64,000 nt of DNA, taken from contig WGMW01000003.1 in the NCBI GenBank assembly GCA_016124845.1, forward strand, positions 27,824 through 91,823, written 5' to 3'. This DNA comes from Flavobacteriales bacterium. GTDB taxonomy: Bacteria; Bacteroidota; Bacteroidia; UBA10329. The notes beneath the pieces are model-generated. The model was not told the origin of the DNA and searched no databases. It saw only the letters and a list, made by a program, of their open reading frames with translations. Each line of letters starts with the position of its first letter. Position 1 is the stretch's first letter. The position numbers and the translations under genes are program-made. Below are positions 25,012-60,920 of this stretch, piece after piece.

Positions 25012-25141
25012 TGAAGTTTACAGAGTTTATAAAGTTGATTAAGAGATAAGATTTGCAGAACGCGGTTCCCCCTTTACAAAGGGGGTGTCGAGAAACGAGA
25101 CGGGGGATTTAATTAGTTGAAAAAGAGTGAATACATTTTAT

Positions 25142-25520
25142 AGCCACAGAAACACAGATTTACACAGAAAGACACAGAGAACATTCTCTGTGAAAACCTC
25201 TGTGCTTTCTGCGCCTCTGTGGCTAAACGATTTTCTCGGTGCATCTCCATTTCTCAGATTTTCTCTGTGCAATAATCCTCTTTGCATCTCTGCGTCTCTG
25301 CGTGAGATAAAAAGAACAGACATGTTAAAGCCACAGAAACACAACTTGTCCCGACACTTCGGGAGATTTACACAGAATGAAAAAGGAGTTTTTTCTGTGA
25401 AAACCTCTGTGCCTTCTGCGCCTCTGTGGCTAAACGATTTTCTCGGTGCATCTCCATTTCTCAGATTTTCTCTGTGCAATAATCCTCTTCGCGCCTTTGC
25501 GCCTTTGCGAGAGGTAAATT
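25142..25520. repeat. Tandem duplication of about 2 x 190 bp of the palindromic element plus its 3' extension.
   Basis: 25142-25223 and 25331-25433 both read AGCCACAGAAACACA...TTCTGTGAAAACCTCTGTGC(C/T)TTCTGCGCCTCTGTGGCT. Each is followed by AAACGATTTTCTCGGTGCATCTCCATTTCTCAGATTTTCTCTGTGCAATAATCCTCTT. The ORFs 25127..25558 (+) and 25138..25479 (-) are translations of this repeat. Confidence 0.75.
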
Positions 25521-25554
25521 GGTCTCTGCGTGAAACAAAAAATATTTCTCAAGC

Positions 25555-26781
25555 ATGAATAACCGAGTGGTGATAACTGGTCTGGGAATTCATTCTTGCC
25601 TTGGCCAAAATGCCGAGGAAGTGACGGCTTCGCTCCGGGACGGAAAATCAGGTATCATCTTCGACCCTGTGCGCAAGGAAATGGGTTTCCGTTCTGCGCT
25701 GGTCGGTGATGTGCCCATGCCCGAATTGAAAGCAGAACTCGGTCGTAAAGACCGCAAGAACATGCCAGAGGAAGCGCTCTACGCCTTCGTTTCTACAAAA
25801 CAGGCGTTGGAAATGGCAGGCATGACCCAAGAGTTCATCGACCAGAACGAGGTCGGTATTCTCTTCGGAAACGATAGTACCGCAGGTGCGGTCATAGAAG
25901 GCGTGGATCTGCTTCGCGAGAAGAAGGACACCACACTTATCGGTTCAGGAAACATCTTCCAGAGCATGAACTGCACCGTAACCATGAACCTCAGCACCAT
26001 CTTCCGCCTCAAAGGCGTCAACTTTACGGTGAGTGCGGCATGCGCCAGCGGTTCGCATTCCATCGGTATGGGCTTCCTGCTCATTAAAATGGGATTGCAG
26101 AAACAGATCATCTGCGGAGGCGCGCAAGAGGTCAACCCGTATGCATTCGGAAGTTTCGATGGCATCGGAACCTTCTCCACCTATGAGGACACCCCAACCG
26201 AAGCCTCACGTCCTTTTGATAAGACACGCAACGGACTGGTACCAAGTGGTGGCGCAGCAACCGTCATTCTCGAAAGTTTGGAAAGCGCACAGGCACGTGG
26301 AGCCAACATCTTGGCCGAAGTGGTCGGTTACGGCTTCAGTTCCAACGGAGAGCACATCTCCAACCCCAATGAAGAAGGGCAGGTGCGCGCGCTCAAAATG
26401 GCCATGGAAATGGGCGGAGTAAAACCCGAAGAGGTCGATTACATCAACGCCCACGCCACCAGTACACCCGTTGGCGATGCGTTCGAAGCACAGGCCATCC
26501 ACAGCGTATTCGGAGACAACGGCCCATTGGTAAGCAGCACCAAAAGCATGACGGGCCACGAGTGCTGGATGGCAGGCGCCTCAGAGGTCGTCTATTCGCT
26601 ACTTATGATGCAGAACGGTTTCGTGGCACCCAACATCAACTTCTCAGAGCCAGATGAAGCCTCGGCCAAGCTCAACATCCCATCAAAAAGTGTGGATAAG
26701 GAATTGAACACGATCCTCTCAAATTCGTTTGGGTTCGGAGGAACAAACTCAACGTTGATAATTCGTAAGTTCGCGCCCTGA
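25555..26781 (+). CDS. Beta-ketoacyl-ACP synthase (KAS I/II-like).
   Basis: VSAACASGSHSIG is the active-site Cys. NAHATSTPVGD and TGHECWMAGASE carry the His/His residues. GFGGTNS is at the C-terminus. Confidence 0.8.
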   Translation: MNNRVVITGLGIHSCLGQNAEEVTASLRDGKSGIIFDPVRKEMGFRSALVGDVPMPELKAELGRKDRKNMPEEALYAFVSTKQALEMAGMTQEFIDQNEVGILFGNDSTAGAVIEGVDLLREKKDTTLIGSGNIFQSMNCTVTMNLSTIFRLKGVNFTVSAACASGSHSIGMGFLLIKMGLQKQIICGGAQEVNPYAFGSFDGIGTFSTYEDTPTEASRPFDKTRNGLVPSGGAATVILESLESAQARGANILAEVVGYGFSSNGEHISNPNEEGQVRALKMAMEMGGVKPEEVDYINAHATSTPVGDAFEAQAIHSVFGDNGPLVSSTKSMTGHECWMAGASEVVYSLLMMQNGFVAPNINFSEPDEASAKLNIPSKSVDKELNTILSNSFGFGGTNSTLIIRKFAP

Positions 26782-27026: not shown

Positions 27027-27089
27027 TCAGTTGACTGGGTTGACCAGTTGATCAGTTCGGATTTCCCTGAGTTTATTGTACACGTTTGC

Positions 27090-27151
27090 TGTCACCCTGA
27101 ACTTGTTTCAAGGTCTAATTCAATAGATGCTGAAACAAGTTCAGCATGACG
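27090..27151. repeat. Two-hairpin element at the left edge of the island.
   Basis: GTCACCCTGAACTTGTTTCAAGGTCT, then AATTCAATAG, then ATGCTGAAACAAGTTCAGCATGACG. This is the reverse complement of the copy at 45585-45644. Confidence 0.75.
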
Positions 27152-27305
27152 AGCGGCATGTGCGTTTGGGTAGGCTGAGCGGAGCCGAAGTCTACAGAGG
27201 TAGGCTTGGCTGTACCCTTCGATTGCCCTCAGGGTACGGCTGCTCGCACCACGTTTTACCTTTGTTGATTTTGCGGAAGACGCGTTTGCAAAATGCTGAG
27301 TGGGG

Positions 27306-27454
27306 GTTGCATGCCACTCTATGGTGATTGCATGCCAGCCGTTCGGTGAGGCATACCACCGAGACGCTGAGGCATCCCAGAAAGACGCGGAGGCATACTG
27401 GAAAGACGGGATTGCATACCGCAAAGACGGGGAGGCATGCCAGCTATTGGTGGA
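27306..27454 (+). repeat. Seven degenerate direct repeats of 21 bp, iteron-like.
   Basis: GGTTGCATGCCACTCTATGGT, GATTGCATGCCAGCCGTTCGGT, GAGGCATACCACCGAGACGCT, GAGGCATCCCAGAAAGACGCG, GAGGCATACTGGAAAGACGGG, ATTGCATACCGCAAAGACGGG, GAGGCATGCCAGCTATTGGTGG. Confidence 0.6.
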
Positions 27455-27547
27455 TGAAAACCGCTTTTTGACAGTTGAGAATGGGTTTTCTTTCAGATTA
27501 TTGTTAAGTGCAAGAAATAATTTGGTAAGCCCGTTAAGAAACTAGAT

Positions 27548-30500
27548 GTGAGCTTTCAGAAGGAGGATATGACCTTTTGGAAAGAGGGTATGGGGTTTTG
27601 GAAGGTGCATATTAATTCATCTTATGTTCACTTTTCCCATAATAGTTTGCATATTGTCAAACCATTGATCTACAATACTTCACCGGCAATGAAAACCACA
27701 CTATTTCATATTCCGCCCATACGACTCACAGCGGCAGTGCTTGAAAAGAAATTGAAAGAAGAGATTGAAACAGAAAACAAGTTTCAAAATGGGGTTTGGT
27801 CAGTGCAAACGAAAGAACATGGATTGCTTGTGGACCTTTCCCAGTTACGTTGGGTTGAGTTCGGGGCTGCTGCTCAATTGTTGTTGTTAATTGAAAGTGC
27901 CTTAAAGCAAGATGTGTCTGTGGATATTGCAATGCCTCTGGATCAACCTTCTTCCGGTGAGAATAAGAAAATGTTAGAAATCCAAATTTCCAATCCAAGG
28001 GTTCATCGACAGATGCAAAATGTGGTTGGCCAACGTAGAGTTGCAAGGAACTTTCTGTATCACATACAGTTTGAACGAGCGGCTATGTGTTACCATGTTG
28101 AAACTGGGGATGTACGAATAATTCGAAAATGCGATTTCCGTTCTGGAAAACCACTGATTTATGATGAGCAAAACGTTCTTGAGCGCGCCAATGTTACGGA
28201 ATCTGATTTCGAATCGAAAAAGACTGATGAAATAAGCTATAAGGCAATTGTACCATTGACTTGGGTTCAAGAGTTGGAAGATAGTCTTGAGGTGAAGAAT
28301 CTAAAAGAGTTTTTGCACGACATTATCGGCAATGAGGAGAAAGGGTTGGCCAAAATTGATGCGCGCTCGATTACAGGTGTTGTGCTAAATGAGTTGGTGA
28401 AAAATTTGAAAGAGCATGCCAACCCATTAGGTGAGAGTTCAACTACCCATGCATTACTTGGGGTAATTCTATTGCCGAACTCAGTGATTGATGAGAACTC
28501 AGTTGGAAACAATGAAAGTTTTTTTAGCTGGCTAAAAGAGGGATATGACCATCATCTCGAGATTTATTTCGGAGATACTGGTCAAGGAGTTGTCAATTCT
28601 CTTAAGAAACAATTTGCCTTATCTGAACAGTCATCGACAATGACTGATGATAATATAGTTCTTTGGGCGTTTGATAAATGGTATAGTAGGAAATCAGAAA
28701 GATTTAGAGGGACTAAAGGATTGTACCGTATTCAGCGAATCGTGAATAAGTACGATGGGTTAATGTCGATTCGCTCTGCTAGGGTTGAAGCCGGTTATCA
28801 AAAAGGTGGATACGATGGCCCTGCGAGGAAGTTTTCCGCAAATGAGTTAGGGTACATGCCGGGTTCTTTCATCAAAATGACCATGGTGCCTTATAGGGAA
28901 CTCGCTAAGGTCAATCCGCCTTTAACAACACCTACAGGAAAAACGCCAGGAGTGATAGTTGAGCGTGTTGAGATCACTGCCAATGATTTACGAGTAGATA
29001 ACTTTTTTGAAAAGCAACACATCGAGCTTGAAGATAGATTCAAGAGCATTAAGGATAGAACTGCGACCGTCTTTATTTTTTTGGATTTCAAACTTGAATC
29101 TATTCAACCAATTTCTGAGAAACTGGTGGAGGATATTCTCAATTCATTAACTCAGTTAAGGCATCCGAATCCATTGGTTGTTTATGGTTTTCCTGAGCAA
29201 TATGGATATGAGAAACTAGAAGGATGCACCGATTCCGTGAATGAGTACTTACGAAGAACATTGGTGGAAAGCGGTCTAAATTTCAACGAGGAAGATTCTA
29301 CAATTCAAGATCCTGAATCTTTCGATAGCGAATTCGAGAATATTGCAGATCCGATTCTGGTTTTAACCAAGGAGGGAGAGCATTCGTGGTGCGGCATCTA
29401 CCAAGATGAAATCATGGAACTTCTTAAGGTCCTTTCTTCCGAAGGAAAGGTGGAAGCTACGTCATACCTCTCTAATAAAGGGGGTAATGAAATTCTTGAA
29501 ATAAAGAAGTTTGTGAATAATGACCCGCTAGTTCATCAATATGCAAATGTGGATGGGAAGCTAATATGGGAACTGCTTTATGGTCTTAACGGTTTGATTA
29601 GATACTATGGAGACAAGTTGATTCAGGAACTTGAGAAACAAGTTTCAGAACAAAAAAAGGGCTATTGCGATATTAGTCCAAATCTGAGTTGGGTTAAGCG
29701 ATGGGTTAATATGGAAACCTTACTTGAATTTGAAGAAGATGGTTTCGGTATTGCTTTGACCTTGTTGTTCAAAAGTAGGCATGGAAATGCGCGTATAGAC
29801 TTGAAATCAATTAAAATTCTCGTTGATAATGAAGAGGCTAGAAAAATAGCGAAACCGTTCTGCAAATGGATGGGGATAGATGTTGATAAGATTGTTGTTC
29901 TAAGTGATGAAGTTGATAGAAGAATACCTCGAAGATCCCCCATTTTCAGCAGAGGGGATCAAGTGTTGATCTTAACAACTCTAATCTCCTCTTTTGAAAC
30001 GGTCAATCGCTTGGCGAAGACGGTGTACAGGGGACTTGCCCATCCGATTGCAATCCTCGGTTTAGTACAGCCCAAAACCCAAGGTTCAGTGAATATATGG
30101 GGACATGATGAACTTGAGATTCTGTCTTTGGCTGAATACGATTTATCTGTTACTCCAATGATGGAATCAATTAAGAGTGGAGTCAAGTTCATTGAGCCGT
30201 ATAGTTATGAATCGATAATAGCGAAGACAAAAGAGGCCTTGATATCAACGGACTTAGGGCATCGCAATCAAGATCTTGATGAGGTACTTGAAATGGTGGA
30301 GAAGGGAAGTGCATTGCATTTTAGTCATGTTGGTAAGAATGCAGGAAGACATTTCACTTTTTACCTAAGTGCAATTGATTTTCTAGCAAAAAATGATGAA
30401 GTCATTATGCAGCGTTACTATGATGAGATTGACAGTTGGGCCGAAAGTCAAGGGATAGAAGACTTTGAAATTTGGACACCAACACCGGTACTCAAGGTTA

Positions 30501-32701
30501 ATCACCTAGAACAAATCTCAAAGCACTTGGAGGAAAGATATCACAAGTATAGTGCTGAATTGGCGGTTTGTGTTGCAAGAAAAGTTATCAAGAGAAACAA
30601 CGTACTTGGGAACTGGGTGTTTTATAACGAGAAAATGCACCGTGGAAGTAAATCCGACAATGTCTTGATAATTGATTGGGGTAGTTTGAATGGAACCACG
30701 GTTCAGCAAATGGTCAATTTTGCTGCTTCGGAGGCAAAGACCAACATTAAGGTTTGCATCCTGTTCTCTCAATTATGGAAGCCTGAGCAAGAGATGCTTG
30801 AGAAAATTGTTCAGGTAAAGCGCAATCCTAGGGTTGAAAATATTCCAGTTGACATATTTACAAATAGCGTCAAAGTTGCTGAGTCGGAGTCGGTGGAAGA
30901 CCTTTCGTCAACCGTGTCGGTTAAATTCCTTTACAGGCTGCCATTGCGTTATTTTGAAATGGAGGAATGCCCGGTATGTGCCCAAATTGAAGCTTTAAAG
31001 CAGTTTGAGGTTCCCAATAAATTGATCAATGATTTTAATGTTTCCCGAAAGGAACGACTTCAAATACGAGATAGGACAACAGAGGTCAATCATAGACCAA
31101 GGGATTTTTACGGTGAGCAACTAACGGGGTCAATCATCTCTGAGATGATGAAGTTCAAGGTTTTGCTTGATGAAGCCTTGTTGTCAACAGAAAAGCGATT
31201 CTTGGTTGTGGAGCATCTAAGGAAACTGGAAGAAGGTTTCCAAGTGGGAAAAATTCAAGGCAATACGGTCGTCCAAGCCGTCATTTATTTTTTGTCGGTT
31301 GAAAAGATATGGATGCACCGCCCACCTTTGGAGTTTCGAATTGCGCGCGATTTAATTGCTCAAATCAGCTTAAAGATTGCTTTAGCTGAGTCTACTCCAA
31401 TGCAACAGCAACTAAAGACTCGATCAAATGTCGTCCGAATAAAGTTTGCTGCGGTAACCGTACTGCGTTCTGCGGATAAAGTTCTGTTTATTGAGAACTT
31501 GGGAGGTATTTTTAGAAGTGCTTTTATTGAAGAAAAGTTTTCCGAAGCAATCGTTCAGAATCTGTTTTATCACTTGCATTCTTTCATTACGCGAGATTAT
31601 CATTCCAGTCAAGAATACTATGATACAATCATCCAAGAGTTGAATGACATAAGGCTGATAGAGGGTATTTCAGATTCTATGCAAGATGCAACTCAATTTT
31701 TAGAACTTATAACCGAAAAACGAAAAACTGGACTTAGAATTCCTTTTGATTCTAAACTGGCGGTAGTTAAAAGTTTAATGGTGCAGAGAAAAAGGAACTT
31801 TGACAGAAAGTACAACCATTATGACATAATTGAACGCTACCGCGCACTTAGCCCAGCATATAGGGGGAAAATTGAGAATTTTATTCAAGGAGTAAACAAT
31901 GATCAGTCGTTTGTGACAACAGATTACTTCCAAAGTTGGTGTCAGAAATTGATGACCGACTGGAAATATGTTGCACAATACCTGAATGATGTGATCTTCG
32001 GTCACCTGGAAAAAATCAAAGACCTCTTTGATAGTAAGAGTTTTAATGTCTATTACATGTTTAGGAGGGATTTGGAAGAGGCAATGCGGCCTGGAGTTGT
32101 TATTGGAAGTAATGATGACTTTACAATTTTGGTCAAACTTATTCAGGATGAACCCAGTGTTTTATTAGAAAAAAATGTATTTGAAAAATACATTGGTCTC
32201 TTAGAAAGCATGTATGTAAATTATTTGAGGTTTGACAAGCGTCAGTTGGAGAACAACTCAGTCTTAAATACTATTTTGTCTCAATTGAATGTTGATTTGG
32301 TTGATAATGTCAATCACGCATTGGAATCATTCAAGGCAATATGTAAGACTGGGCTCGACTACAGTTTTAGTAGGGATGAAGCAACTATTTATCAGGCGTT
32401 TATTTTTGAACCCCTTCTAAAGAATCTGCTTCAACACATTTTCGAAGATAATATTCACGAAAAGGATGAAGATGAACAGTCGCAAACCCCACTTAGTGTT
32501 CAGGTTTCGCTTAAACAGATTGATAATTCATTTGAACTTCTGATTGAGAACTCGGTATCAGATCCAGAACAAAAGAACAACCTGATGGGTGGACTGTCTA
32601 AGTGGCGAGAACAAATATTGGATTTTGATGGAGAGTTGAAGTGGGGTTTTAATAAAGATAGGACCAAATTTTATCGACAGATTATTTTATTGAAATTTTA
32701 A
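27548..32701 (+). CDS. Giant multidomain protein of 1717 aa (1670 aa from the ATG at 27689). It has an N-terminal GHKL/histidine-kinase-like ATPase domain, two PRTase-like Rossmann domains and a long alpha-helical C-terminal region. No family assignment.
   Basis: GHKL N-box GVVLNELVKNLKEHANP, G1 box EIYFGDTGQGVV and G2 box GTKGLYRIQRIV, with canonical spacing. PRTase-like cores: GDQVLILTTLISSFETVNRLAKTV...IAILGLV, and SDNVLIIDWGSLNGTTVQQMVNFAASEAKTNIKVCILFS. The second aligns residue-for-residue with the HGPRT core [21 protein letters not shown]...VKVASLL. A single CPVC motif is present. GC is about 38%, against 50-55% in the flanks. Confidence 0.7.
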   Translation: MSFQKEDMTFWKEGMGFWKVHINSSYVHFSHNSLHIVKPLIYNTSPAMKTTLFHIPPIRLTAAVLEKKLKEEIETENKFQNGVWSVQTKEHGLLVDLSQLRWVEFGAAAQLLLLIESALKQDVSVDIAMPLDQPSSGENKKMLEIQISNPRVHRQMQNVVGQRRVARNFLYHIQFERAAMCYHVETGDVRIIRKCDFRSGKPLIYDEQNVLERANVTESDFESKKTDEISYKAIVPLTWVQELEDSLEVKNLKEFLHDIIGNEEKGLAKIDARSITGVVLNELVKNLKEHANPLGESSTTHALLGVILLPNSVIDENSVGNNESFFSWLKEGYDHHLEIYFGDTGQGVVNSLKKQFALSEQSSTMTDDNIVLWAFDKWYSRKSERFRGTKGLYRIQRIVNKYDGLMSIRSARVEAGYQKGGYDGPARKFSANELGYMPGSFIKMTMVPYRELAKVNPPLTTPTGKTPGVIVERVEITANDLRVDNFFEKQHIELEDRFKSIKDRTATVFIFLDFKLESIQPISEKLVEDILNSLTQLRHPNPLVVYGFPEQYGYEKLEGCTDSVNEYLRRTLVESGLNFNEEDSTIQDPESFDSEFENIADPILVLTKEGEHSWCGIYQDEIMELLKVLSSEGKVEATSYLSNKGGNEILEIKKFVNNDPLVHQYANVDGKLIWELLYGLNGLIRYYGDKLIQELEKQVSEQKKGYCDISPNLSWVKRWVNMETLLEFEEDGFGIALTLLFKSRHGNARIDLKSIKILVDNEEARKIAKPFCKWMGIDVDKIVVLSDEVDRRIPRRSPIFSRGDQVLILTTLISSFETVNRLAKTVYRGLAHPIAILGLVQPKTQGSVNIWGHDELEILSLAEYDLSVTPMMESIKSGVKFIEPYSYESIIAKTKEALISTDLGHRNQDLDEVLEMVEKGSALHFSHVGKNAGRHFTFYLSAIDFLAKNDEVIMQRYYDEIDSWAESQGIEDFEIWTPTPVLKVNHLEQISKHLEERYHKYSAELAVCVARKVIKRNNVLGNWVFYNEKMHRGSKSDNVLIIDWGSLNGTTVQQMVNFAASEAKTNIKVCILFSQLWKPEQEMLEKIVQVKRNPRVENIPVDIFTNSVKVAESESVEDLSSTVSVKFLYRLPLRYFEMEECPVCAQIEALKQFEVPNKLINDFNVSRKERLQIRDRTTEVNHRPRDFYGEQLTGSIISEMMKFKVLLDEALLSTEKRFLVVEHLRKLEEGFQVGKIQGNTVVQAVIYFLSVEKIWMHRPPLEFRIARDLIAQISLKIALAESTPMQQQLKTRSNVVRIKFAAVTVLRSADKVLFIENLGGIFRSAFIEEKFSEAIVQNLFYHLHSFITRDYHSSQEYYDTIIQELNDIRLIEGISDSMQDATQFLELITEKRKTGLRIPFDSKLAVVKSLMVQRKRNFDRKYNHYDIIERYRALSPAYRGKIENFIQGVNNDQSFVTTDYFQSWCQKLMTDWKYVAQYLNDVIFGHLEKIKDLFDSKSFNVYYMFRRDLEEAMRPGVVIGSNDDFTILVKLIQDEPSVLLEKNVFEKYIGLLESMYVNYLRFDKRQLENNSVLNTILSQLNVDLVDNVNHALESFKAICKTGLDYSFSRDEATIYQAFIFEPLLKNLLQHIFEDNIHEKDEDEQSQTPLSVQVSLKQIDNSFELLIENSVSDPEQKNNLMGGLSKWREQILDFDGELKWGFNKDRTKFYRQIILLKF
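27635..27655 (+). promoter_or_regulatory. Candidate Bacteroidetes-type -7 promoter element upstream of the giant ORF.
   Basis: ATAATAGTTTGCATATTG is about 35 bp upstream of the ATG at 27689 and loosely resembles the TAnnTTTG -7 consensus. This is weak evidence. Confidence 0.2.
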
Positions 32702-32705
32702 GTCC

Positions 32706-34355
32706 ATGGATTCATTTGCAATATATTTTTTTGACGATGTAAAGGCTGATCAAAGGCTCATCAAGGATTATATAGAACCATTGTTTGATGGTTTTTCTCC
32801 CTCGAGAACTGTTAGTCCAAAGATAGAGGCGGATATTGAGAAGTTTGAATCAGCATTGTTGGAAGCCCAGAGGATTGACTTGGTCATATTGGATATTATA
32901 GAGAAGCAGGTGGATGCCAAAGGCGATGTAAAACTTGAAAAAGCTGGATTGAAACTCCTAAACAAGCCATTGATAACGGAGAAACTTCGAAGCTTAAATA
33001 CACCTGTTCTAATTTATTCATCAGATGATGATAGTATTCTCGCAGCAAGACAAATAGCTCAAGACCAAGGGATTAAAGTTGGTGAACTTCGCAAGGAATT
33101 TAGTGCAAAAACAGGAGCATTTCAAACTGTAAGAAAGGCAATTGAGGGTATAGTAGATTTTGGTGAACTGTTAGGCAGGTATAAAATAATTTTGACTCCC
33201 AACTTAAGGACACTATCATTGAATGATAGCGTTGGAGAGTCAGTGATTTCAAGTATTCTGGCGAAGTATTCAAGTTTTAGTTCGACCATTCCTGAAAATG
33301 GAAGTATAACTATTAAAGCTCTTACCCCAGGTTGGTCTGGTGCTTATATCTTCTTGGCAGATTTTGGGGCATCAAAACATGTTCTGTTCAAATTGTCGAA
33401 CGATTTACAGGAACTTGGAAAAGAGTTTAAGAATGTTGAGGACTATTATGAACCTCTTAGGTCAAAAACAACGGTCAAAGTTGGCAAAGTATCTCCGAGT
33501 AAACTTCAGTACAAAGGTTGGTCTGCTCTTTCATTTGAATTTGCCTCCGAAACAAATTCCTGTTTTAATTGGTTACAGACCAATCCTACTGATACTAAGG
33601 TTAAGAAAAACCTTAGGACGATTTTTTCTGACACCTGTTTAATGGGACTTTATAAAGTTACTGGAGAGTCAGAGTTGGATTGTAAAAGTACCTTGGATTT
33701 AGTACTGCTAGGACTTTCAAGAAACAAGAAGTTGCAAGTCAAAGCAAGCATAGAAGAGTTACATGGGGTTTTGCTTAACTATAACGCAGATTACGAAAAT
33801 TCATTGCTGCCGCTTGTTTCAATCATCAAGGAAAATGGGTCTTTTGACATGTTGGCTAATGAGCATATGGATCCAGGATTTAAAGCTCAAATATGCCACG
33901 GTGACCTTCATGCTAACAATTTATTGATAGATGCTAATGATGATCCGATTCTTATCGATGCGGGAAGCATAGGTTACGGTCATTCAACCTCAGATGTATG
34001 TCTTTTGATGGTTGATTTATTAATTAGGGGTATTGATCATGGTAAATTGGCGTATTTTGACCTAACGGCTATAGGAGAACATTTTAAATTGTTGGAAAAA
34101 GTTATTGACCAGAAAAAAATCGATTCAAACACAGATTCCAATAAAGGAATCTGTAGAGCGATAAATTACCTAAACCTGAACGTCAATAACTTGGTGGAAA
34201 TTCCCTTTGAACCTTGGGAGTTTTCATTGAACTTGGCGGTTGAATTTGCGAAAGCGGCATGTCGGAACACTTTTCCACCAAGTAAAAGAGTTGTGGCGCT
34301 TTTGGCAGCTGCAAGGGCAATTGAGGAGGCAAATAGTCGATTTAAATCACCTTAG
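32706..34355 (+). CDS. Receiver (REC)-like domain fused to an APH/protein-kinase-like kinase.
   Basis: N-terminal AIYFFDDVKAD...IDLVILDII...TPVLIYSSDDD...ELRK shows the acidic pocket, phospho-acceptor Asp, Ser/Thr and Lys in the order expected for CheY-like receivers. The C-terminal half has a Gly-rich loop LTPGWSGAYIFLADFG and VLFKL Lys. The Brenner catalytic motif is ICHGDLHANNLLID. ILIDAGSIGYG is the DFG equivalent. Confidence 0.65.
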   Translation: MDSFAIYFFDDVKADQRLIKDYIEPLFDGFSPSRTVSPKIEADIEKFESALLEAQRIDLVILDIIEKQVDAKGDVKLEKAGLKLLNKPLITEKLRSLNTPVLIYSSDDDSILAARQIAQDQGIKVGELRKEFSAKTGAFQTVRKAIEGIVDFGELLGRYKIILTPNLRTLSLNDSVGESVISSILAKYSSFSSTIPENGSITIKALTPGWSGAYIFLADFGASKHVLFKLSNDLQELGKEFKNVEDYYEPLRSKTTVKVGKVSPSKLQYKGWSALSFEFASETNSCFNWLQTNPTDTKVKKNLRTIFSDTCLMGLYKVTGESELDCKSTLDLVLLGLSRNKKLQVKASIEELHGVLLNYNADYENSLLPLVSIIKENGSFDMLANEHMDPGFKAQICHGDLHANNLLIDANDDPILIDAGSIGYGHSTSDVCLLMVDLLIRGIDHGKLAYFDLTAIGEHFKLLEKVIDQKKIDSNTDSNKGICRAINYLNLNVNNLVEIPFEPWEFSLNLAVEFAKAACRNTFPPSKRVVALLAAARAIEEANSRFKSP

Positions 34356-34391
34356 CAATAAGGCGTTTGGTAAATAAATGAGAGAAAAAAT

Positions 34392-35321
34392 ATGATGGAA
34401 AATTTTGCTGACCGACTAATACGTTCAGTTGAACGTAAAGCTACTCCGTGTATAGTTGGGCTGGACCCCCGTTTAGAACTCATTCCAGATTTTATTCTTA
34501 CAAATGCTCAGAAAGGGTCGCTGAATGAGGCTATAGCTTCAGCAATCACCACATTTCATACAATCATATTAGACTCAATCCAAGACCTTGTTCCTTGTGT
34601 AAAACCTCAAATTGCCTTCTATGAGCAATATGGCCTACCGGGGATGATTGCATTTGAGAACACAGTTAAGGCTGCAAAGGAGCGAGGACTTCTTGTGATT
34701 GTGGATGCCAAAAGAAATGACATTGGTTCAACCGCAACTGCTTATGCAAATGCGTTTCTTGGTGCCTCGGTTGTGTTTGGAGAGCGTAAACCAATGTTTG
34801 ATGTTGATGCTGTGACGGTAAATGGATACATGGGTGAGGAAACTTTGGTGCCGTTTGTAAATGTTTGCAAGGATTATGGAAAGGGAATTTTTGTCCTTGT
34901 CAAAACATCAAACCCTGGTTCAGGTGATGTTCAGGACCAAATCTTGGAGGAGTCGAAGCTTCCGCTTTATGTAAAGATGGCACGAACGGTTAATAGGTTA
35001 GGAATGGATATGGTCGGTAAAAACGGTTACAGTTCGGTAGGAGCGGTCGTAGGGGCAACTTATTCGGAAGCAGCAAAAGAATTGCGCGCTGAAATGTACA
35101 ACAACGTTTTTTTAGTGCCAGGCTATGGAGCACAAGGAGCCTCTGGAAAGGATGTCGTACATAATTTCAATTCAGATGGTCTGGGAGCCTTAATAAATGC
35201 ATCTCGAAGTATCACTTTTGCTGGTTATGATAAGGATGTTTCGATGATAGAATTTGAAAGTATTATTCGCCAGAATACGGAGGATATGGTGGTAGATGTT
35301 CGAAATAGTTTGAATAGTTAG
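34392..35321 (+). CDS. Orotidine-5'-phosphate decarboxylase, type 2 (PyrF family-2 architecture).
   Basis: PCIVGLDP. VIVDAKRNDIGSTA matches the DxKxxDIxxT signature. VTVNGYMG, VLVKTSNPGSGDVQ, GAVVGAT and LVPGYGAQG are all type-2 OMPDC hallmarks. Confidence 0.7.
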   Translation: MMENFADRLIRSVERKATPCIVGLDPRLELIPDFILTNAQKGSLNEAIASAITTFHTIILDSIQDLVPCVKPQIAFYEQYGLPGMIAFENTVKAAKERGLLVIVDAKRNDIGSTATAYANAFLGASVVFGERKPMFDVDAVTVNGYMGEETLVPFVNVCKDYGKGIFVLVKTSNPGSGDVQDQILEESKLPLYVKMARTVNRLGMDMVGKNGYSSVGAVVGATYSEAAKELRAEMYNNVFLVPGYGAQGASGKDVVHNFNSDGLGALINASRSITFAGYDKDVSMIEFESIIRQNTEDMVVDVRNSLNS

Positions 35322-35327
35322 TCTGAG

Positions 35328-35981
35328 ATGTCGATTAGGTCGATTGTTCCGAAGACAAGGATTGTTTTAGCGTTAGACTGTGAAACTGAGGAGGAATGTG
35401 TTCGAGTTTTAAACAGTTGCTACGAACAAATAGATTTAATCAAAGTTAATTACCCTCTTATTTTATCTGAAGGTCTCCCAATTATTGGCAGGCTTAAGAA
35501 AGTATTTGGCAAGCCAATTATTGCAGATTTCAAAGTTGCTGATGCACCAGTAACGAATAATCGAATCGTGAAATTGGTCAAAGATGCTGGTGCTGATTCA
35601 ATAATGGTTCATGCTATAGTAGGTACTGATGCGATTTATGAAATAAAGCAAATTGGAGGTGGCGAATTGGAAATAATAGTGGTAACGGAATTAACTCATC
35701 CTGGAGGTCTGGAGTTTACAAGAAAGTACGCAGAGGAGGCGGCAAAACTTGCATTGGAGATGGGGTGTTTGGGAATTCAAGCTCCTGGTACTCGGCCGGA
35801 ACAAATTGAAAAACTCAGGCAAATTGTAGGTCAGGACATGATTATCGTGGCTTGTGGTGTAGGAGCGCAGGGGGGACAGTATTCCGAAGTTATTAAAGCT
35901 GGAGCTGATTACGCTATCATTGGAAGGGCGATTTATGAATCAAGTAATCCGTCCTTAGCCATTGAATCTATTATTACTTGA
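35328..35981 (+). CDS. OMP-decarboxylase-superfamily TIM-barrel protein, HPS/KGPDC/type-1-OMPDC-like.
   Basis: RIVLALDCETEEE is the ALD start. PIIADFKVADAPVT matches DxKxxD. SIMVHAIVG. IIGRAIYES is the GR-I phosphate loop. Confidence 0.6.
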   Translation: MSIRSIVPKTRIVLALDCETEEECVRVLNSCYEQIDLIKVNYPLILSEGLPIIGRLKKVFGKPIIADFKVADAPVTNNRIVKLVKDAGADSIMVHAIVGTDAIYEIKQIGGGELEIIVVTELTHPGGLEFTRKYAEEAAKLALEMGCLGIQAPGTRPEQIEKLRQIVGQDMIIVACGVGAQGGQYSEVIKAGADYAIIGRAIYESSNPSLAIESIIT

Positions 35982-36139
35982 GTTTGAAGGTGGTTGCCCA
36001 AGGTCTGGTATTTCCTTAAAGTACCATAAGTTTCTGAGGGTCTTTGGCTTTTGAAGAGGCTTCCCGGCTCGCGCGAGTGTTCCGAAGGGTCACTCGTGTG
36101 GAGGTAAATACAATCAGTTTCCAAACTGATCTTCAAAGA

Positions 36140-36380
36140 TTAAATAAGATCGCCACTGCCTCCGCTTCCCGTTAGCGTTTGCAACGCGTGCTTTCTTACC
36201 TGAAAACCGCCATCAGTCCTAACCGTCTGATAACCAGCGTTCTCAGTCCACTCCCGATCTATCTCCGTCTTCTCCCGATCATTCTCGGTCGAGTCCCGAT
36301 CATTCTCGGTCGAGTCCCGATCTATCTCGGTCAAGCCCCGATCTATCTCGGTCAAGCCCACGATCTATCTCAGTCTTGCC
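36140..36380. repeat. Left copy of a large inverted repeat. It has about 110 bp of unique sequence plus an array of six 21-bp tandem repeats (CCCGATCWWTCTCGGTCRAGY).
   Basis: Six tandem units at 36253-36380. 36205-36252 is homologous in reverse complement to 53997-54040. ORFs 36140..36361 (-) and 36179..36481 (+) are 7-aa-periodic translations of the array. Confidence 0.7.
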
Positions 36381-36589
36381 CCAAAAATCTACCCTTAAAG
36401 CACCGATCAACCTCTGTTCAGTCCCGGGTATTCACCAAAGGGCAACAACTCATATCAGTTTTAATTAAAAGATGCCAGTAGAACCGCGGCCTTCCCTCTT
36501 GGCTGGTCAGCCTATCATAATCTGAGCCCCCAAAAGAACACGCAAATCCACGTATCCCCGAACTTCCGAACCTTACTAAATTCGCGCCC

Positions 36590-37456
36590 ATGAGCGAATG
36601 GAGCGGAAAGAGTAGAGGAAACGCCTTAGGTTACTGGTTCTTCATCTTCTTTATGAAGCATCTGGGCCTTGGGTTCACCTACGGTTTCCTGCATTTTGTG
36701 GTGCTGTATTTCTTCCTGTTCTCGTGGAGCAGCAGCAAATGGATCTACCGCTACTACCGCGATGGCCTGCGCTATGGCGTACTGAAAAGCATTGCGGGCA
36801 TTTACCGCACCTACTACGTGTTCGGGCAGGTAATTATAGACAAGGTGGCCATGGCATCGGGCATCAAAGACCGCTTTAACCTAACGCACAACGGGGCCGA
36901 GCACATCCGCAACATGGTAGAGAACCAGACGGGCGGCATTCTTATTTCGGGCCACATGGGCAATTGGGAAATAGCCAGCCACCTGATGCGCGGCTATGGC
37001 GGCAAGGTGAACGTGGTGATGTACGATGAGGAGCACCAGCAGATAAAGAAGCAGATGGACGGCACCACGGGCGGCCGCAAGTTCAACGTAATACCCATTA
37101 AGGACGATATTTCGCACGTATTCCTCATCAGTAAAGCCCTGCTGAACAAGGAATTGGTGTGCATACACGGAGACCGCTTCCGCGAAGGCATGCGTACTCT
37201 CAAAGAGGATTTTCTGGGCAAGGAAGCGCAGTTTCCTTACGGTCCGTTTGCCATTGCCGCCAAGTTCGATGTGCCCAAGGTTTTCGTGTACGGCTTTAAG
37301 ACCGGAACGTACGATTACAGCTTCTACTGCACGCAACCCATAGAGGGCAAATTGAAGCCCGAACTTTTACTCACAAAGTATGTTGATGAAATGGCCCACA
37401 TGGTGCGGAAATACCCGAACCAGTGGTTCAATTTTTACGACTTTTGGAAGCCTTAA
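36590..37456 (+). CDS. Lysophospholipid / lipid A-type acyltransferase (LpxL/HtrB-like).
   Basis: N-terminal transmembrane helix. The HxxxxD-type motif GHMGNWE is present. A typical pigment-cluster acyltransferase. Confidence 0.65.
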   Translation: MSEWSGKSRGNALGYWFFIFFMKHLGLGFTYGFLHFVVLYFFLFSWSSSKWIYRYYRDGLRYGVLKSIAGIYRTYYVFGQVIIDKVAMASGIKDRFNLTHNGAEHIRNMVENQTGGILISGHMGNWEIASHLMRGYGGKVNVVMYDEEHQQIKKQMDGTTGGRKFNVIPIKDDISHVFLISKALLNKELVCIHGDRFREGMRTLKEDFLGKEAQFPYGPFAIAAKFDVPKVFVYGFKTGTYDYSFYCTQPIEGKLKPELLLTKYVDEMAHMVRKYPNQWFNFYDFWKP

Positions 37457-39312: not shown

Positions 39313-39534
39313 ATGTTGGTCATGAGCACGAAAGAACTGATTTCGAAAATAGACGCGCTTCCTCCTGAATTCCGAAGGGAAGTGGAAGATTTCATTGACT
39401 TTCTGAAGCAGAAATTGGAACGTGAGGAAACGAAGAAACCTCTTGAAAAACGACAGTTCGGCTATGCCAAGGGCTTTTTCAAAATGTCTGACGATTTCGA
39501 TGAACCATTGGAGGATTTCAAAGATTATATGTGA
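39313..39534 (+). CDS. Antitoxin (DUF2281-like) paired with the downstream PIN toxin.
   Basis: 73 aa. Its end overlaps the start of the downstream PIN gene by 4 bp. Confidence 0.5.
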   Translation: MLVMSTKELISKIDALPPEFRREVEDFIDFLKQKLEREETKKPLEKRQFGYAKGFFKMSDDFDEPLEDFKDYM

Positions 39535-39917
39535 TGAATATTCTCCTTGATACGCACGCGTTTGTTTGGTTCATGAACGCGGATGGTAAGTTTCCTAAGC
39601 ATCTTATCAAGGACATTGAGAATTTTGAGAACACCTGCTATTTGAGTGTTGCCAGCCTTTGGGAAATGGCCATCAAGGTAAATCTTGGTAAACTTGAACT
39701 GGTTGATGATTTCGAGAACATTCTGGAATTCTGTTCTTCCAACAGGATTATTCTTCTGCCCATTGAATTCGAAGACACACGGTCGGTAATTGGTCTTCCA
39801 GACCATCATCGCGACCCTTTCGATAGAATGTTAGTGGTTCAGGCCAATCGGCAAGAGGCAATTCTCCTTACCAAAGACCGCATGTTTGACCGCTATGAAG
39901 TTCAGACCCGTTGGTAA
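39531..39917 (+). CDS. vapC: PIN-domain ribonuclease toxin (VapC).
   Basis: ILLDTHAFVWF carries the first acidic residue, SLWEMAIK the second, and the later DPFDRMLVVQA the third. Confidence 0.65.
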   Translation: MMNILLDTHAFVWFMNADGKFPKHLIKDIENFENTCYLSVASLWEMAIKVNLGKLELVDDFENILEFCSSNRIILLPIEFEDTRSVIGLPDHHRDPFDRMLVVQANRQEAILLTKDRMFDRYEVQTRW

Positions 39918-53771: not shown

Positions 53772-53912
53772 GCTGTAAGACTGCGGTTCCGCGAGTTTGT
53801 CTTTCTATTTACCGAAATGATTTGTTGCTTTTTTGAGAAAGGCCGTTGCTTGACCGTGGATGTGTGTGCTCGGACCGATGGTGATCGATGCTTGTCTGGT
53901 AGATTTTTGTGG

Positions 53913-54040
53913 TAAGACCGAGAATGATCGGGGCTTGACCGAGATAGATCGGGAGAAGACGGAGATAGATCGGGACTCGACCGAGAATGATCGGGAATGG
54001 ACTGATGATGTTGGTTATCAGGTGGTTACGGTTTGTGTCG
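53913..54040. repeat. Right copy of the large inverted repeat. It has four inverted copies of the 21-bp unit plus about 45 bp of adjoining sequence.
   Basis: GACCGAGAATGATCGGG and GACCGAGATAGATCGGG are reverse complements of the 36253-36380 units. 53997-54040 matches the reverse complement of 36205-36252. Confidence 0.7.
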
Positions 54041-59737: not shown

Positions 59738-60772
59738 ATGTACAAATACATTTTCCGACCGCTCTTTTTTATCCTCGATCCTGAATCTGCACATCACTTC
59801 GTCACGGATCTTTTTACGCTTCTGATGAAGATTCCCGGTGTGAAACAGATCACCGAAAGCATGTATAAGGTGGAGGACAAACGTCTTGAACGGGAACTGT
59901 TCGGGTTGAAATTCCCGAATCCGGTCGGGTTGGCCGCAGGGTTTGATAAGCAGGCTTCGTTTTACAAGGAATTCAGCTCGTTGGGGTTCGGTTTCATTGA
60001 GGTGGGGACCATCACGCCCCAGCCTCAGAACGGGAATCCGCAGCCGCGTATGTTCCGCCTGCCAAAAGATCAAGGGTTGATCAACCGCATGGGGTTCAAC
60101 AATGGCGGGTTGGACATGGCCCGCAAGAACCTCGAAGGCCGTGATCGCAGTTTCATTATCGGGGGCAACATCGGTAAGAACAAGGTAACGCCCAACGAGA
60201 ACGCGGTGGATGATTACATCCTCTGTTTTCAAGGCCTGCACGATCTGGTAGACTATTTCGTGGTGAACGTGTCCTCACCGAACACGCCCGGTCTGCGCGA
60301 GTTGCAGGACAAGGAACCCTTGCTTCGAATTCTGAACGCGCTGAAGGAGGAGAACACGAAGATCCCTGTGCCACGGCCGATCCTTCTGAAAATTGCGCCA
60401 GATCTTACCGATTCGCAGTTGGACGACATTGTGGAAATTGTGGCCGAATCGAAGATCGATGGAGTAATTGCCACCAACACCACCATTTCCCGCGAGGGCT
60501 TGAAGTCTTCTGAATCCATTACAAAGGAAGTTGGAGGTTTGAGTGGGAAACCGGTCCGTGAGCGAAGCACGGAAGTGATACGCTACCTTCATCAGAAAAG
60601 CAATGGTTCGTTCCCGATCATTGGTGTGGGTGGAATCCATTCTGCCGAGGATGCGATAGAAAAGTTGAATGCGGGCGCGAGTCTGGTGCAGGTTTATACG
60701 GGGTTCATTTATGAGGGGCCGGGATTGGTGAAGCGGATAAATAAAGCGTTGGTAAAGTTGACGAAGAGATAG
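59738..60772 (+). CDS. pyrD: Dihydroorotate dehydrogenase (quinone), class 2.
   Basis: [21 protein letters not shown]-terminus. [42 protein letters not shown]. Confidence 0.9.
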
Positions 60773-60920
60773 AGTTGACGAGGAGATAGAGTTGACGGAG
60801 AGATAGAGTTGACGAAGAGATAGAGTTGATGGAGAGATAGAGTTGACGGAGAGATAGAGTTGACGAAGAGATAAAGTTTACAAAGAGATAAAGTTGACGG
60901 AGAGATAAAGTTGACGGAGT
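60755..60920. repeat. Tandem repeat of about 9.5 copies of a 17-bp unit, (A/G)AGAGATAGAGTTGACG.
   Basis: Starts inside the last codons of pyrD. The units are nearly identical. ORF 60705..60992 (-) is its 51-bp-periodic translation. Confidence 0.8.

Follow-up and report, generated by a model that had tools for sequence, protein, structure and literature searches.

A foreign insert in a Flavobacteriales pigment cluster carries a conserved two-gene signaling module extended by two orotidine monophosphate decarboxylases

The insert and its site in the pigment cluster

We analyzed a 64,000-nucleotide stretch of a Flavobacteriales bacterium (assembly GCA_016124845.1, contig WGMW01000003.1, positions 27,824 to 91,823 of the forward strand), referred to here as the window, in which a flexirubin/aryl-polyene-type pigment cluster harbors 9.56 kb of foreign, low-GC DNA. 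The insert extends from the stop codon of an acyl carrier protein (ACP) gene to the start codon of an acyltransferase gene (27,027–36,589, forward strand) and is filled by four open reading frames (ORFs) on that strand, g1 to g4, which are separated by gaps of 4, 36, and 6 nt. The first encodes a giant multidomain protein, the second a receiver-kinase fusion, and the last two orotidine 5′-monophosphate (OMP) decarboxylases. On the left, the pigment cluster contributes an aromatic amino-acid lyase, a ketoreductase (KR), a ketosynthase (KS), and the ACP; on the right lie the lipid-A-type acyltransferase, a thioesterase, and another KS.

A first-pass annotation, made from the letters of the window alone, had described a low-GC foreign island of four co-directional, tightly spaced genes that splits a pigment cluster, and base composition, gene order, and comparison with related clusters all bear this description out. 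GC content was 0.36–0.45 over 27–36 kb and approximately 0.49–0.51 on both sides, with values of 0.392 for g1, 0.378 for g2, 0.420 for g3, and 0.405 for g4. At third codon positions (GC3), the genes of the insert ranged from 0.31 to 0.38, while host cluster genes ranged from 0.51 to 0.71. In two close relatives, L051 and L052, whose acyltransferases are 86% and 79% identical to that of the window, only 6 nt separate the ACP stop from the acyltransferase start, and g1 to g4 are all missing from the orthologous clusters. Because these relatives have an intact cluster without the four genes, we conclude that the insertion is real and that g1 to g4 are not members of the pigment cluster. As a horizontally acquired cassette, the insert comprises a two-gene signaling module, extended here by two OMP decarboxylases.

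The limits of the foreign DNA are narrower than the 27,030–36,590 proposed in the first-pass annotation. The insertion spans that interval, but the outer 0.5 kb or so on each side (27,027–27,500 and 36,200–36,589) has host-like GC and contains repeats with copies elsewhere in the window, and the clearly foreign part is about 27.5–36.2 kb. The left border repeats (27,091–27,438) comprise a palindromic dispersed host repeat at 27,091–27,150 and a 21-nt tandem array at 27,348–27,438, and the right border repeat (36,241–36,375) is a 21-nt tandem array with an approximately 90% identical copy on the other strand at 53,898–53,996. Copies of the ∼60-nt palindrome occur near 7.13–7.27, 15.42–15.50, 18.63–18.71, and 45.59–45.64 kb. 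Since the arrays and the palindrome are found elsewhere in the window, they are the host's own repeats and not marks of the island border. The borders of the insert showed neither an integrase nor a tRNA gene, and no terminal repeat in direct or inverted orientation. A search against Rfam detected no RNA, including riboswitches, in 26.5–37 kb at E≤1, and a scan for sigma-70 promoters and terminators performed no better than on shuffled sequence.

The conserved unit and its distribution

To find relatives of g1, we searched 1.84 billion representative sequences exhaustively and recovered a family of 302 clusters at 50% identity (E≤1e-3), nearly all of which are 1,550–1,750 aa long; a word-indexed search yielded 30 clusters. 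From genomes and metagenomes we gathered 36 further distinct loci, 29 of which had readable downstream sequence, with the window as the 30th. A g2 homologue lay directly after g1 in all 30. No conserved third gene was found beside g1–g2 in any locus, including upstream of g1. The conserved unit is therefore two genes, g1 and g2, and the four-gene set is a real sub-variant. The first-pass annotation had proposed a four-gene system and had asked whether its genes ever co-occur elsewhere. They do recur outside pigment clusters, with all four genes in L021, L022/23, L027, and L054 and three in L026, but only g1 and g2 form the conserved core.

OMP decarboxylases (OMPDCs) were present in 7 of the 30 readable loci and also in L049/50, where the contig end cuts g1, which brings the total to 8 loci. 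We observed three arrangements: OMPDC genes downstream of the pair, a single gene upstream (L041), and a gene upstream together with GTP cyclohydrolase II and a short-chain dehydrogenase/reductase (SDR) (L049/50). The downstream pair completes the four-gene set in the window, L021, L022/23, L027, and L054, while L026 has g3 only. The locus of P0006 probably carries a downstream pair as well, because P0038, which is 65% identical to g4, is found on a longest contig of equal size (8,474 nt). In the loci with downstream OMPDCs, g3 and g4 are 56–68% identical to the copies in the window, whereas g1 and g2 are 24–33% identical; the upstream OMPDCs are 33% (L041) and 53% (L049/50) identical to g3. 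In L049 (7443–11505) and L050, the GTP cyclohydrolase II, OMPDC, and SDR genes lie directly upstream of the cut g1 homologue. A neighbor-joining tree of g1 scattered the OMPDC-bearing loci but was too rough to separate one gain followed by losses from several gains.

Both g1 and g2 have diverged rapidly, with identities of 23–33%, and the range of the family is patchy, covering Bacteroidota, Ignavibacteriota, Chlorobiota, Balneola, Cloacimonadales, Acidobacteriota, and Gemmatimonadaceae. No g1 relatives were found in plasmid, phage, or IMG/VR collections.

Outside the window, g1–g2 pairs were repeatedly accompanied by defense genes and mobile-element genes. A complete Gabija system (GajA, 5e-260; GajB, 2e-98) lies directly beside the pair in L009, Lamassu LmuB in L017 and L036, PDC-S56 (1e-238) in L039, and a type IIG restriction-modification enzyme (3e-198) in L033. 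The pair is next to putAbiC, two methyltransferases, and AAA_15/DUF4276 in L027, and next to AbiH and an EcoRV fragment in L041. Its neighbors are a relaxase, MobC, an integrase, and a CHAT-TPR protein in L003, ArdC in L054, and a PIN pair in L001. Among the 140 neighbors scanned (three genes on each side at 28 loci), there were also matches to AriA, AbiLi, HEC-01, MADS, and methyltransferase models, along with three integrases. As an association, these neighborhoods fit the conflict role that had been suggested for the window genes.

Several loci showed altered forms of g1. In the four-gene locus of L054 (467–8744), three ORFs of 461, 1,137, and 90 aa together make up g1, and the locus is followed by an ArdC-N/MPTase-PolyVal gene of a type typical of conjugative elements. 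L045–L047 encode a 526-aa protein with only the STAS and GHKL domains of g1 (for example, L046 3864–5444; HATPase_c, 3e-5), which is flanked by IS1595-type transposases and may be a truncated g1. In L047, a protein of 1,357 aa encoded nearby combines a TCAD9/APH kinase with methyltransferase domains.

The four proteins and comparable systems

The g1 gene most likely occupies 27,689–32,701 and encodes 1,670 aa. The ORF is also open from 27,548, the start that underlay an earlier call of 1,717 aa, but 27,689 agrees with the NCBI model P0001 and with the point at which the N-termini of 28 homologues align (alignment A1). The product is a large cytoplasmic protein. When g1 of the window was compared as a whole with Pfam, NCBIfam, and PADLOC, there was no significant match, while a scan of all 29 homologues gave weak, recurrent matches to STAS, HATPase_c, and PRTase_2. 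A full-length g1 profile found marginal matches only among the PDB sequences, and structure prediction was needed. We predicted the structure as two overlapping parts from the alignment of 29 homologues (aa 1–1130, pLDDT 74; aa 1061–1670, pLDDT 82 and pTM 0.78). The resulting domain order is STAS, a GHKL domain of the SpoIIAB/RsbW type, a winged helix, two folds resembling orotate phosphoribosyltransferase (OPRT), a CPxC motif, and a C-terminus resembling histidine kinases and pyruvate dehydrogenase kinases (PDKs). Predicted structure, Foldseek searches, and motifs agree with the GHKL domain and tandem phosphoribosyltransferase (PRTase) domains recognized in the first-pass annotation, to which the STAS domain, the winged helix, and the C-terminal histidine-kinase-like module are now added.

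The N-terminal part begins with the STAS-like fold (27,716–28,093, about aa 10–135), followed by the GHKL domain (28,244–28,888, about aa 186–400). In the latter, the N, G1, and G2 boxes are essentially invariant among 29 sequences, as in the serine kinases of partner-switching systems, and this domain is the only evident ATP user in g1. A well-folded alpha/beta domain without a specific fold match comes after it (aa 420–560, ∼28,946–29,368). A PurR-like winged helix would lie at about aa 570–630 (29,396–29,578), its position being approximate.

PRTase-like domain 1 (29,711–30,223, about aa 675–845) carries the phosphoribosyl pyrophosphate (PRPP) loop VLILTTLISSFET, and PRTase-like domain 2 (30,266–30,943, about aa 860–1085) carries the PRPP loop VLIIDWGSLNGTT. 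Of the top 50 Foldseek matches to the N-terminal part of g1, 49 were type I PRTases, with PurR first; the PRTase domains themselves matched orotate PRTases best in structure, and uridine monophosphate (UMP) synthase was among the Foldseek matches. Both domains have the type I fold, but neither has the two adjacent acidic residues expected of an enzyme of this type. In domain 1, 28 of 29 homologues have T-T/S in place of the acidic pair of the PRPP loop, with the phosphate loop S-S-x-E-T kept. In domain 2 the pair has become D/E followed by an aromatic residue (W or F), and the phosphate loop is again kept. Because the catalytic acidic pair is lost in part or entirely while the 5′-phosphate loop is retained, we read these folds as pockets for phosphoribosyl ligands; on these motifs they would be ligand sensors and not enzymes.

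A C-P-x-C motif (30,968–30,979, aa 1094–1097) that is invariant in alignment A1 follows in a part of the model with low confidence. The remainder of g1 (31,127–32,698) is a helical bundle with a histidine-kinase/PDK-like module, in which the domain resembling the catalytic and ATP-binding (CA) domain covers aa ∼1525–1670 (32,261–32,698). We also noted that the long, well-folded helical region after the CPxC motif (aa 1100–1500, ∼30,986–32,188) has no specific fold match. With Foldseek, the C-terminus matched the whole cytoplasmic part of HK853 as well as PDKs (E 5e-5 to 5e-4). Alignment with a single histidine kinase by hhalign placed the N and G2 boxes with low probability and located no phospho-histidine. 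H1295 and H1377, conserved in 28 of 29 g1 sequences, are only candidate phospho-acceptors. The first-pass annotation had pointed out a resemblance to a kinase-receiver pair; the part of g1 that resembles a receiver partner is this C-terminal module and not the N-terminal GHKL domain.

The g2 gene (32,706–34,355) encodes a receiver (aa 1–∼135, 32,706–33,110) joined to an APH/TCAD9-type kinase (aa ∼195–549), in agreement with the earlier call of a fusion of these two domains. A profile of 15 homologues matched many response regulators in the PDB (best 3.6e-5), and Pfam Response_reg was matched by 3 of the 15 (best 3e-8). The invariant D11 and D63, together with a conserved lysine near aa 130, supply the residues of a classical receiver. 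The kinase catalytic motifs are complete as well, with invariant K229, E240, H398, D400, N405, and D418. TCAD9 and APH were matched by all 15 members; g2 of the window scored 29.1 against a cut-off of 23.2 for APH and 31 bits against a gathering cut-off of 40 for TCAD9. Methylthioribose kinase and aminoglycoside kinases are among the closest solved kinases.

The g3 gene (34,392–35,321) encodes a type 2 OMPDC (TIGR02127, 276 bits against a cut-off of 110.6) whose closest solved structure is 3r89 (6e-41). The g4 gene (35,328–35,981) encodes an archaeal-like type 1 enzyme (PRK13813, 210.6 against 208; TIGR01740, 152 against 92.3), for which the OMPDC entries 3lhy/2cz5 are closest (2.5e-50). D25, K71, and D105-x-K107-x-x-D110 in g3 and D17, K39, and D67-x-K69-x-x-D72 in g4 are conserved in all copies of the system, and by the residues kept both proteins are predicted to be catalytically intact OMPDCs. 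Both score above PyrF equivalog cut-offs, in two different subfamilies. Their assignment to the OMPDC superfamily was therefore correct, but they are not close paralogues.

Relatives of g3 and g4 also occur away from g1–g2. L053 (5535–8810, SRR30832649) contains a g4-like (58%) and a g3-like (45%) OMPDC side by side without g1 or g2, in a low-GC cluster with a deoxynucleoside kinase (dNK)/thymidylate-kinase-like gene, a class V aminotransferase, an MBL (Apyc1-like) hydrolase, NTP_transf_5, a glycosyltransferase, a HAD protein, and PTS EIIC. This may be a cluster for a nucleoside-derived metabolite, and given this locus the OMPDC pair behaves as its own cassette. In Robertmurraya massiliosenegalensis (L024, 10001–10957), a g4-like OMPDC (59%) with a C-terminal extension of ∼100 aa is clustered with PucR, TRAP transporter, M20 peptidase, DHOD-B-like, and dihydroorotase-like genes, which suggests a separate metabolic use of the archaeal-type OMPDC in Bacilli.

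We compared the module with known systems that share one or more of its parts. Detocs (DtcA/DtcB/DtcC), whose logic had been invoked in the first-pass annotation, has the same outline: a large cytoplasmic sensor with a histidine-kinase-like module beside a protein that joins a receiver to a cell-affecting effector. Both are found beside defense genes, both swap modules, and Detocs provides the precedent for a receiver-gated effector. Unlike Detocs, g1–g2 has no gene for a stand-alone receiver “buffer” (DtcB) in any locus, the window included. The effector of g2 is an APH/TCAD9 kinase, while those of Detocs are a PNP nucleosidase, a nuclease, or a transmembrane domain. The sensor differs too, with STAS, GHKL, winged-helix, and PRTase domains in g1 in place of the tetratricopeptide repeats of Detocs, and the CA-like domain of g1 has no G1 box. 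The missing receiver gene, the different effector, and the unrelated sensor rule out membership in Detocs. Neither g1 nor g2 had a significant match in PADLOC, although the presence of Detocs models in version 2.0.0 is unconfirmed.

CapK/CapS, which control immune operons, likewise pair an anti-sigma-like kinase with a STAS protein, but g1 fuses in one protein of 1,670 aa the two domains that are separate in CapK/CapS, SpoIIAB-SpoIIAA, and RsbW-RsbV. It further differs from these partner-switching pairs in that its STAS domain has no canonical phospho-serine and that no sigma-factor or repressor output is evident. In PurR of Bacillus subtilis, a winged helix precedes a type I PRTase fold that serves to bind PRPP or ppGpp and not to catalyze a reaction; g1, by contrast, has two such folds in tandem, with a degenerate acidic pair, inside a giant kinase-rich protein. 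As in UMP synthase (OPRT plus OMPDC) and PyrF, OPRT-like folds and OMPDCs are encoded together, but the PRTase domains of g1 lack the full catalytic motif, and the OMPDCs come from two subfamilies and are optional to the core pair. The kinase of g2 belongs to the same Pfam family, in 15 of 15 homologues, as the TCAD9 kinase effectors of vWA-MoxR ternary systems, but it is fused to a receiver and its loci lack vWA, MoxR, and VMAP partners.

The combination of partner-switching, PurR, UMP-synthesis, and TCAD9 parts is found in no described system. PADLOC, Pfam, NCBIfam, and the literature on OMPDC and PRTase proteins in anti-phage defense and on TCAD9 contained no such gene set, in line with the first-pass annotation, which knew of none. 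HATPase/REC and PRTase systems are mentioned in the accessible portion of the DefensePredictor paper, and none of those mentioned there matches g1–g2.

Proposed mechanism and alternatives

We tentatively favor the possibility that the g1–g2 insert is a two-component-like anti-phage module, in which a phosphoribosyl metabolite would be sensed, a kinase effector switched on, and the ligand pool tuned by the decarboxylases. The mechanism that we infer would begin at the PRTase pockets of g1, which would bind a phosphoribosyl ligand (PRPP, OMP, or UMP) or, as in PurR, (p)ppGpp. OMP, UMP, and PRPP would be the likeliest class, since OPRT is the closest structure and OMPDCs have been recruited several times. 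A change in ligand on infection, or nucleic acid touching the winged helix, may then release the STAS-GHKL switch; with STAS beside GHKL in one chain, this would be an intramolecular partner switch akin to CapK/CapS. The C-terminal histidine-kinase-like module would be the natural dock for the g2 receiver, and ATP-dependent phosphorylation might be relayed through it to Asp63 of g2. As the output, the activated kinase of g2 would halt growth or phage replication by phosphorylating a small molecule or a protein. APH-like kinases have been described as effector domains of conflict systems and proposed to phosphorylate low-molecular-weight substrates (PMC7159879). Where OMPDCs are present, they could turn an OMP-like ligand into UMP, setting the threshold or resetting the sensor, and thus act as a buffer against self-activation in healthy cells.

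A number of observations weigh against this reading. The STAS fold is present, but at the canonical phospho-site the consensus is x-L/F-x-A-A, without Ser/Thr, in a register that we presumed from the SpoIIAA motif (Ser/Thr after DLS). In the C-terminal module no canonical H-box was found, and the Asp-x-Gly-x-Gly of the G1 box is absent from the CA-like domain. This domain is apparently unable to bind ATP, so that the proposed relay of phosphate to Asp63 is conjectural. Sensing by the PRTase folds is deduced from motif loss, and PRTase 2, in which one of the two acids survives, might still be enzymatically active. With OMPDCs missing from most loci, no central role can be given to them. In L053, the nucleoside-type cluster holds an OMPDC pair without g1 or g2, which favors a biosynthetic role. 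The defense neighbors are an association, not a statistic, and the copy in the window stands alone in a pigment cluster, outside any defense island.

The most direct alternative is the one raised in the first-pass annotation, that of a signal-regulated module that makes or destroys an unusual nucleotide. In this scheme PRTase 2 would couple PRPP to a base analogue to give a 6-carboxy product for the OMPDCs to process, and the sugar or the nucleotide would be the substrate of the APH-type kinase, the outcome being an antiviral antimetabolite or a PRPP drain. The OPRT-like folds (with UMP synthase among the structural matches), the repeatedly recruited OMPDCs, the GTP cyclohydrolase II and SDR genes beside the g1 homologue of L049/50, and the company of the L053 pair (a dNK-like kinase, a nucleotidyltransferase, a glycosyltransferase, and a HAD protein) all suit it, as does the fact that methylthioribose and aminoglycoside kinases, which are among the solved kinases closest to g2, act on sugar hydroxyls. 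It is weakened by the PRPP loops, which have lost both acids in PRTase 1 (28 of 29) and one in PRTase 2. About three quarters of the loci have neither an OMPDC nor another metabolic enzyme, and the window has no base-synthesis genes. We regard this alternative as unlikely. We think it still less likely that g1–g2 is a non-defensive stress or metabolic regulator on mobile DNA, a hybrid of PurR-like, partner-switching, and two-component parts that adjusts pyrimidine or PRPP levels with the OMPDCs as regulated output or back-ups. Down-regulation of UMP synthesis on phage infection, as reported in Lactococcus (PMC10986495), is compatible with such a regulator. Housekeeping signaling is the source of the STAS/RsbW, PurR-like, and receiver parts alike, g3 and g4 exceed the PyrF equivalog cut-offs, and g4-like enzymes of Bacilli lie in a metabolic cluster (L024). 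A regulator of this kind would not be expected to be so rare and patchy (302 clusters among 1.84 billion) or to diverge so fast, nor to be missing from the close relatives of the host (L051 and L052). Its repeated position beside Gabija, Lamassu, restriction-modification, and Abi genes and integrases also counts against such a role, and a kinase, not a DNA-binding domain, forms its output.

Several nucleoside antibiotics act on OMPDC, and their producers protect themselves with genes for pyrimidine salvage. The two OMPDC types, which are kept together and highly conserved, could accordingly serve as divergent duplicates of the target that protect against an OMPDC-inhibiting nucleoside antimetabolite from a competitor, a phage, or the system itself, with g1–g2 sensing the block. 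We consider this very improbable, as most g1–g2 loci are devoid of OMPDCs, the window has no inhibitor-biosynthesis genes, and nothing indicates that g3 or g4 is insensitive to inhibitors. Hardly any credence can be given to a tailoring or regulatory role of the four genes within the pigment cluster. Location and shared strand are all that would suggest it, and it is refuted by the intact clusters of L051 and L052 and the foreign GC3; in addition, pigment genes occurred beside g1 in 0 of 35 other loci.

If the anti-phage reading of g1–g2 is extended further, the module would represent a new immune class that watches or rewires pyrimidine/PRPP metabolism by means of an intramolecular STAS-GHKL switch, PRTase sensors, and a phosphorelay joined in a single giant protein, with a receiver-gated small-molecule kinase as effector and OMPDCs as accessories. 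We give this full form of the proposal a fair chance, but one below even.

Elsewhere in the pigment cluster, a 143-aa ORF (25,127–25,558; GC3 0.375) with no Pfam match lies between the KR and KS genes. It looks like a second, small foreign insertion, because KR and KS abut in L051 and L052. A 73-aa ORF and a PIN-domain gene (39,313–39,917), resembling a toxin-antitoxin pair, lie between the second KS gene and a gene for a 200-aa protein; this site is empty in L052 and holds a DUF6602 gene in L051, which makes it a second insertion hot spot of the cluster. The intergenic spacers of the cluster are enlarged by short repeat families relative to those of the relatives, and the window also contains a 17-nt array of 9.5 copies at 60,756–60,916.

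With three separate foreign insertions, the pigment cluster of the window demonstrates that biosynthetic clusters can be split by defense-type cargo, which matters for automatic calls of cluster boundaries. The module itself is compact (two to four genes) and its catalytic residues are easily mutated, so that it is directly testable. Judging from the recurrent recruitment of OMPDCs, OMP, UMP, or PRPP may be contested in infection, for which we found no precedent in the literature; OMPDCs as dedicated immune accessory enzymes, if confirmed, are likewise not described in the literature searched. If the favored reading is true, the family would bring a new effector, the receiver-gated APH-type kinase, and a new sensing principle, in which PRTase folds are reused as metabolite sensors. 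Together, these data suggest that g1–g2 is a rare, undescribed two-gene module and a solid candidate for a new kind of bacterial defense system. Should protection against phage by g1 and g2 be borne out, the pair would constitute a second, unrelated family of two-component-like defense beside Detocs.

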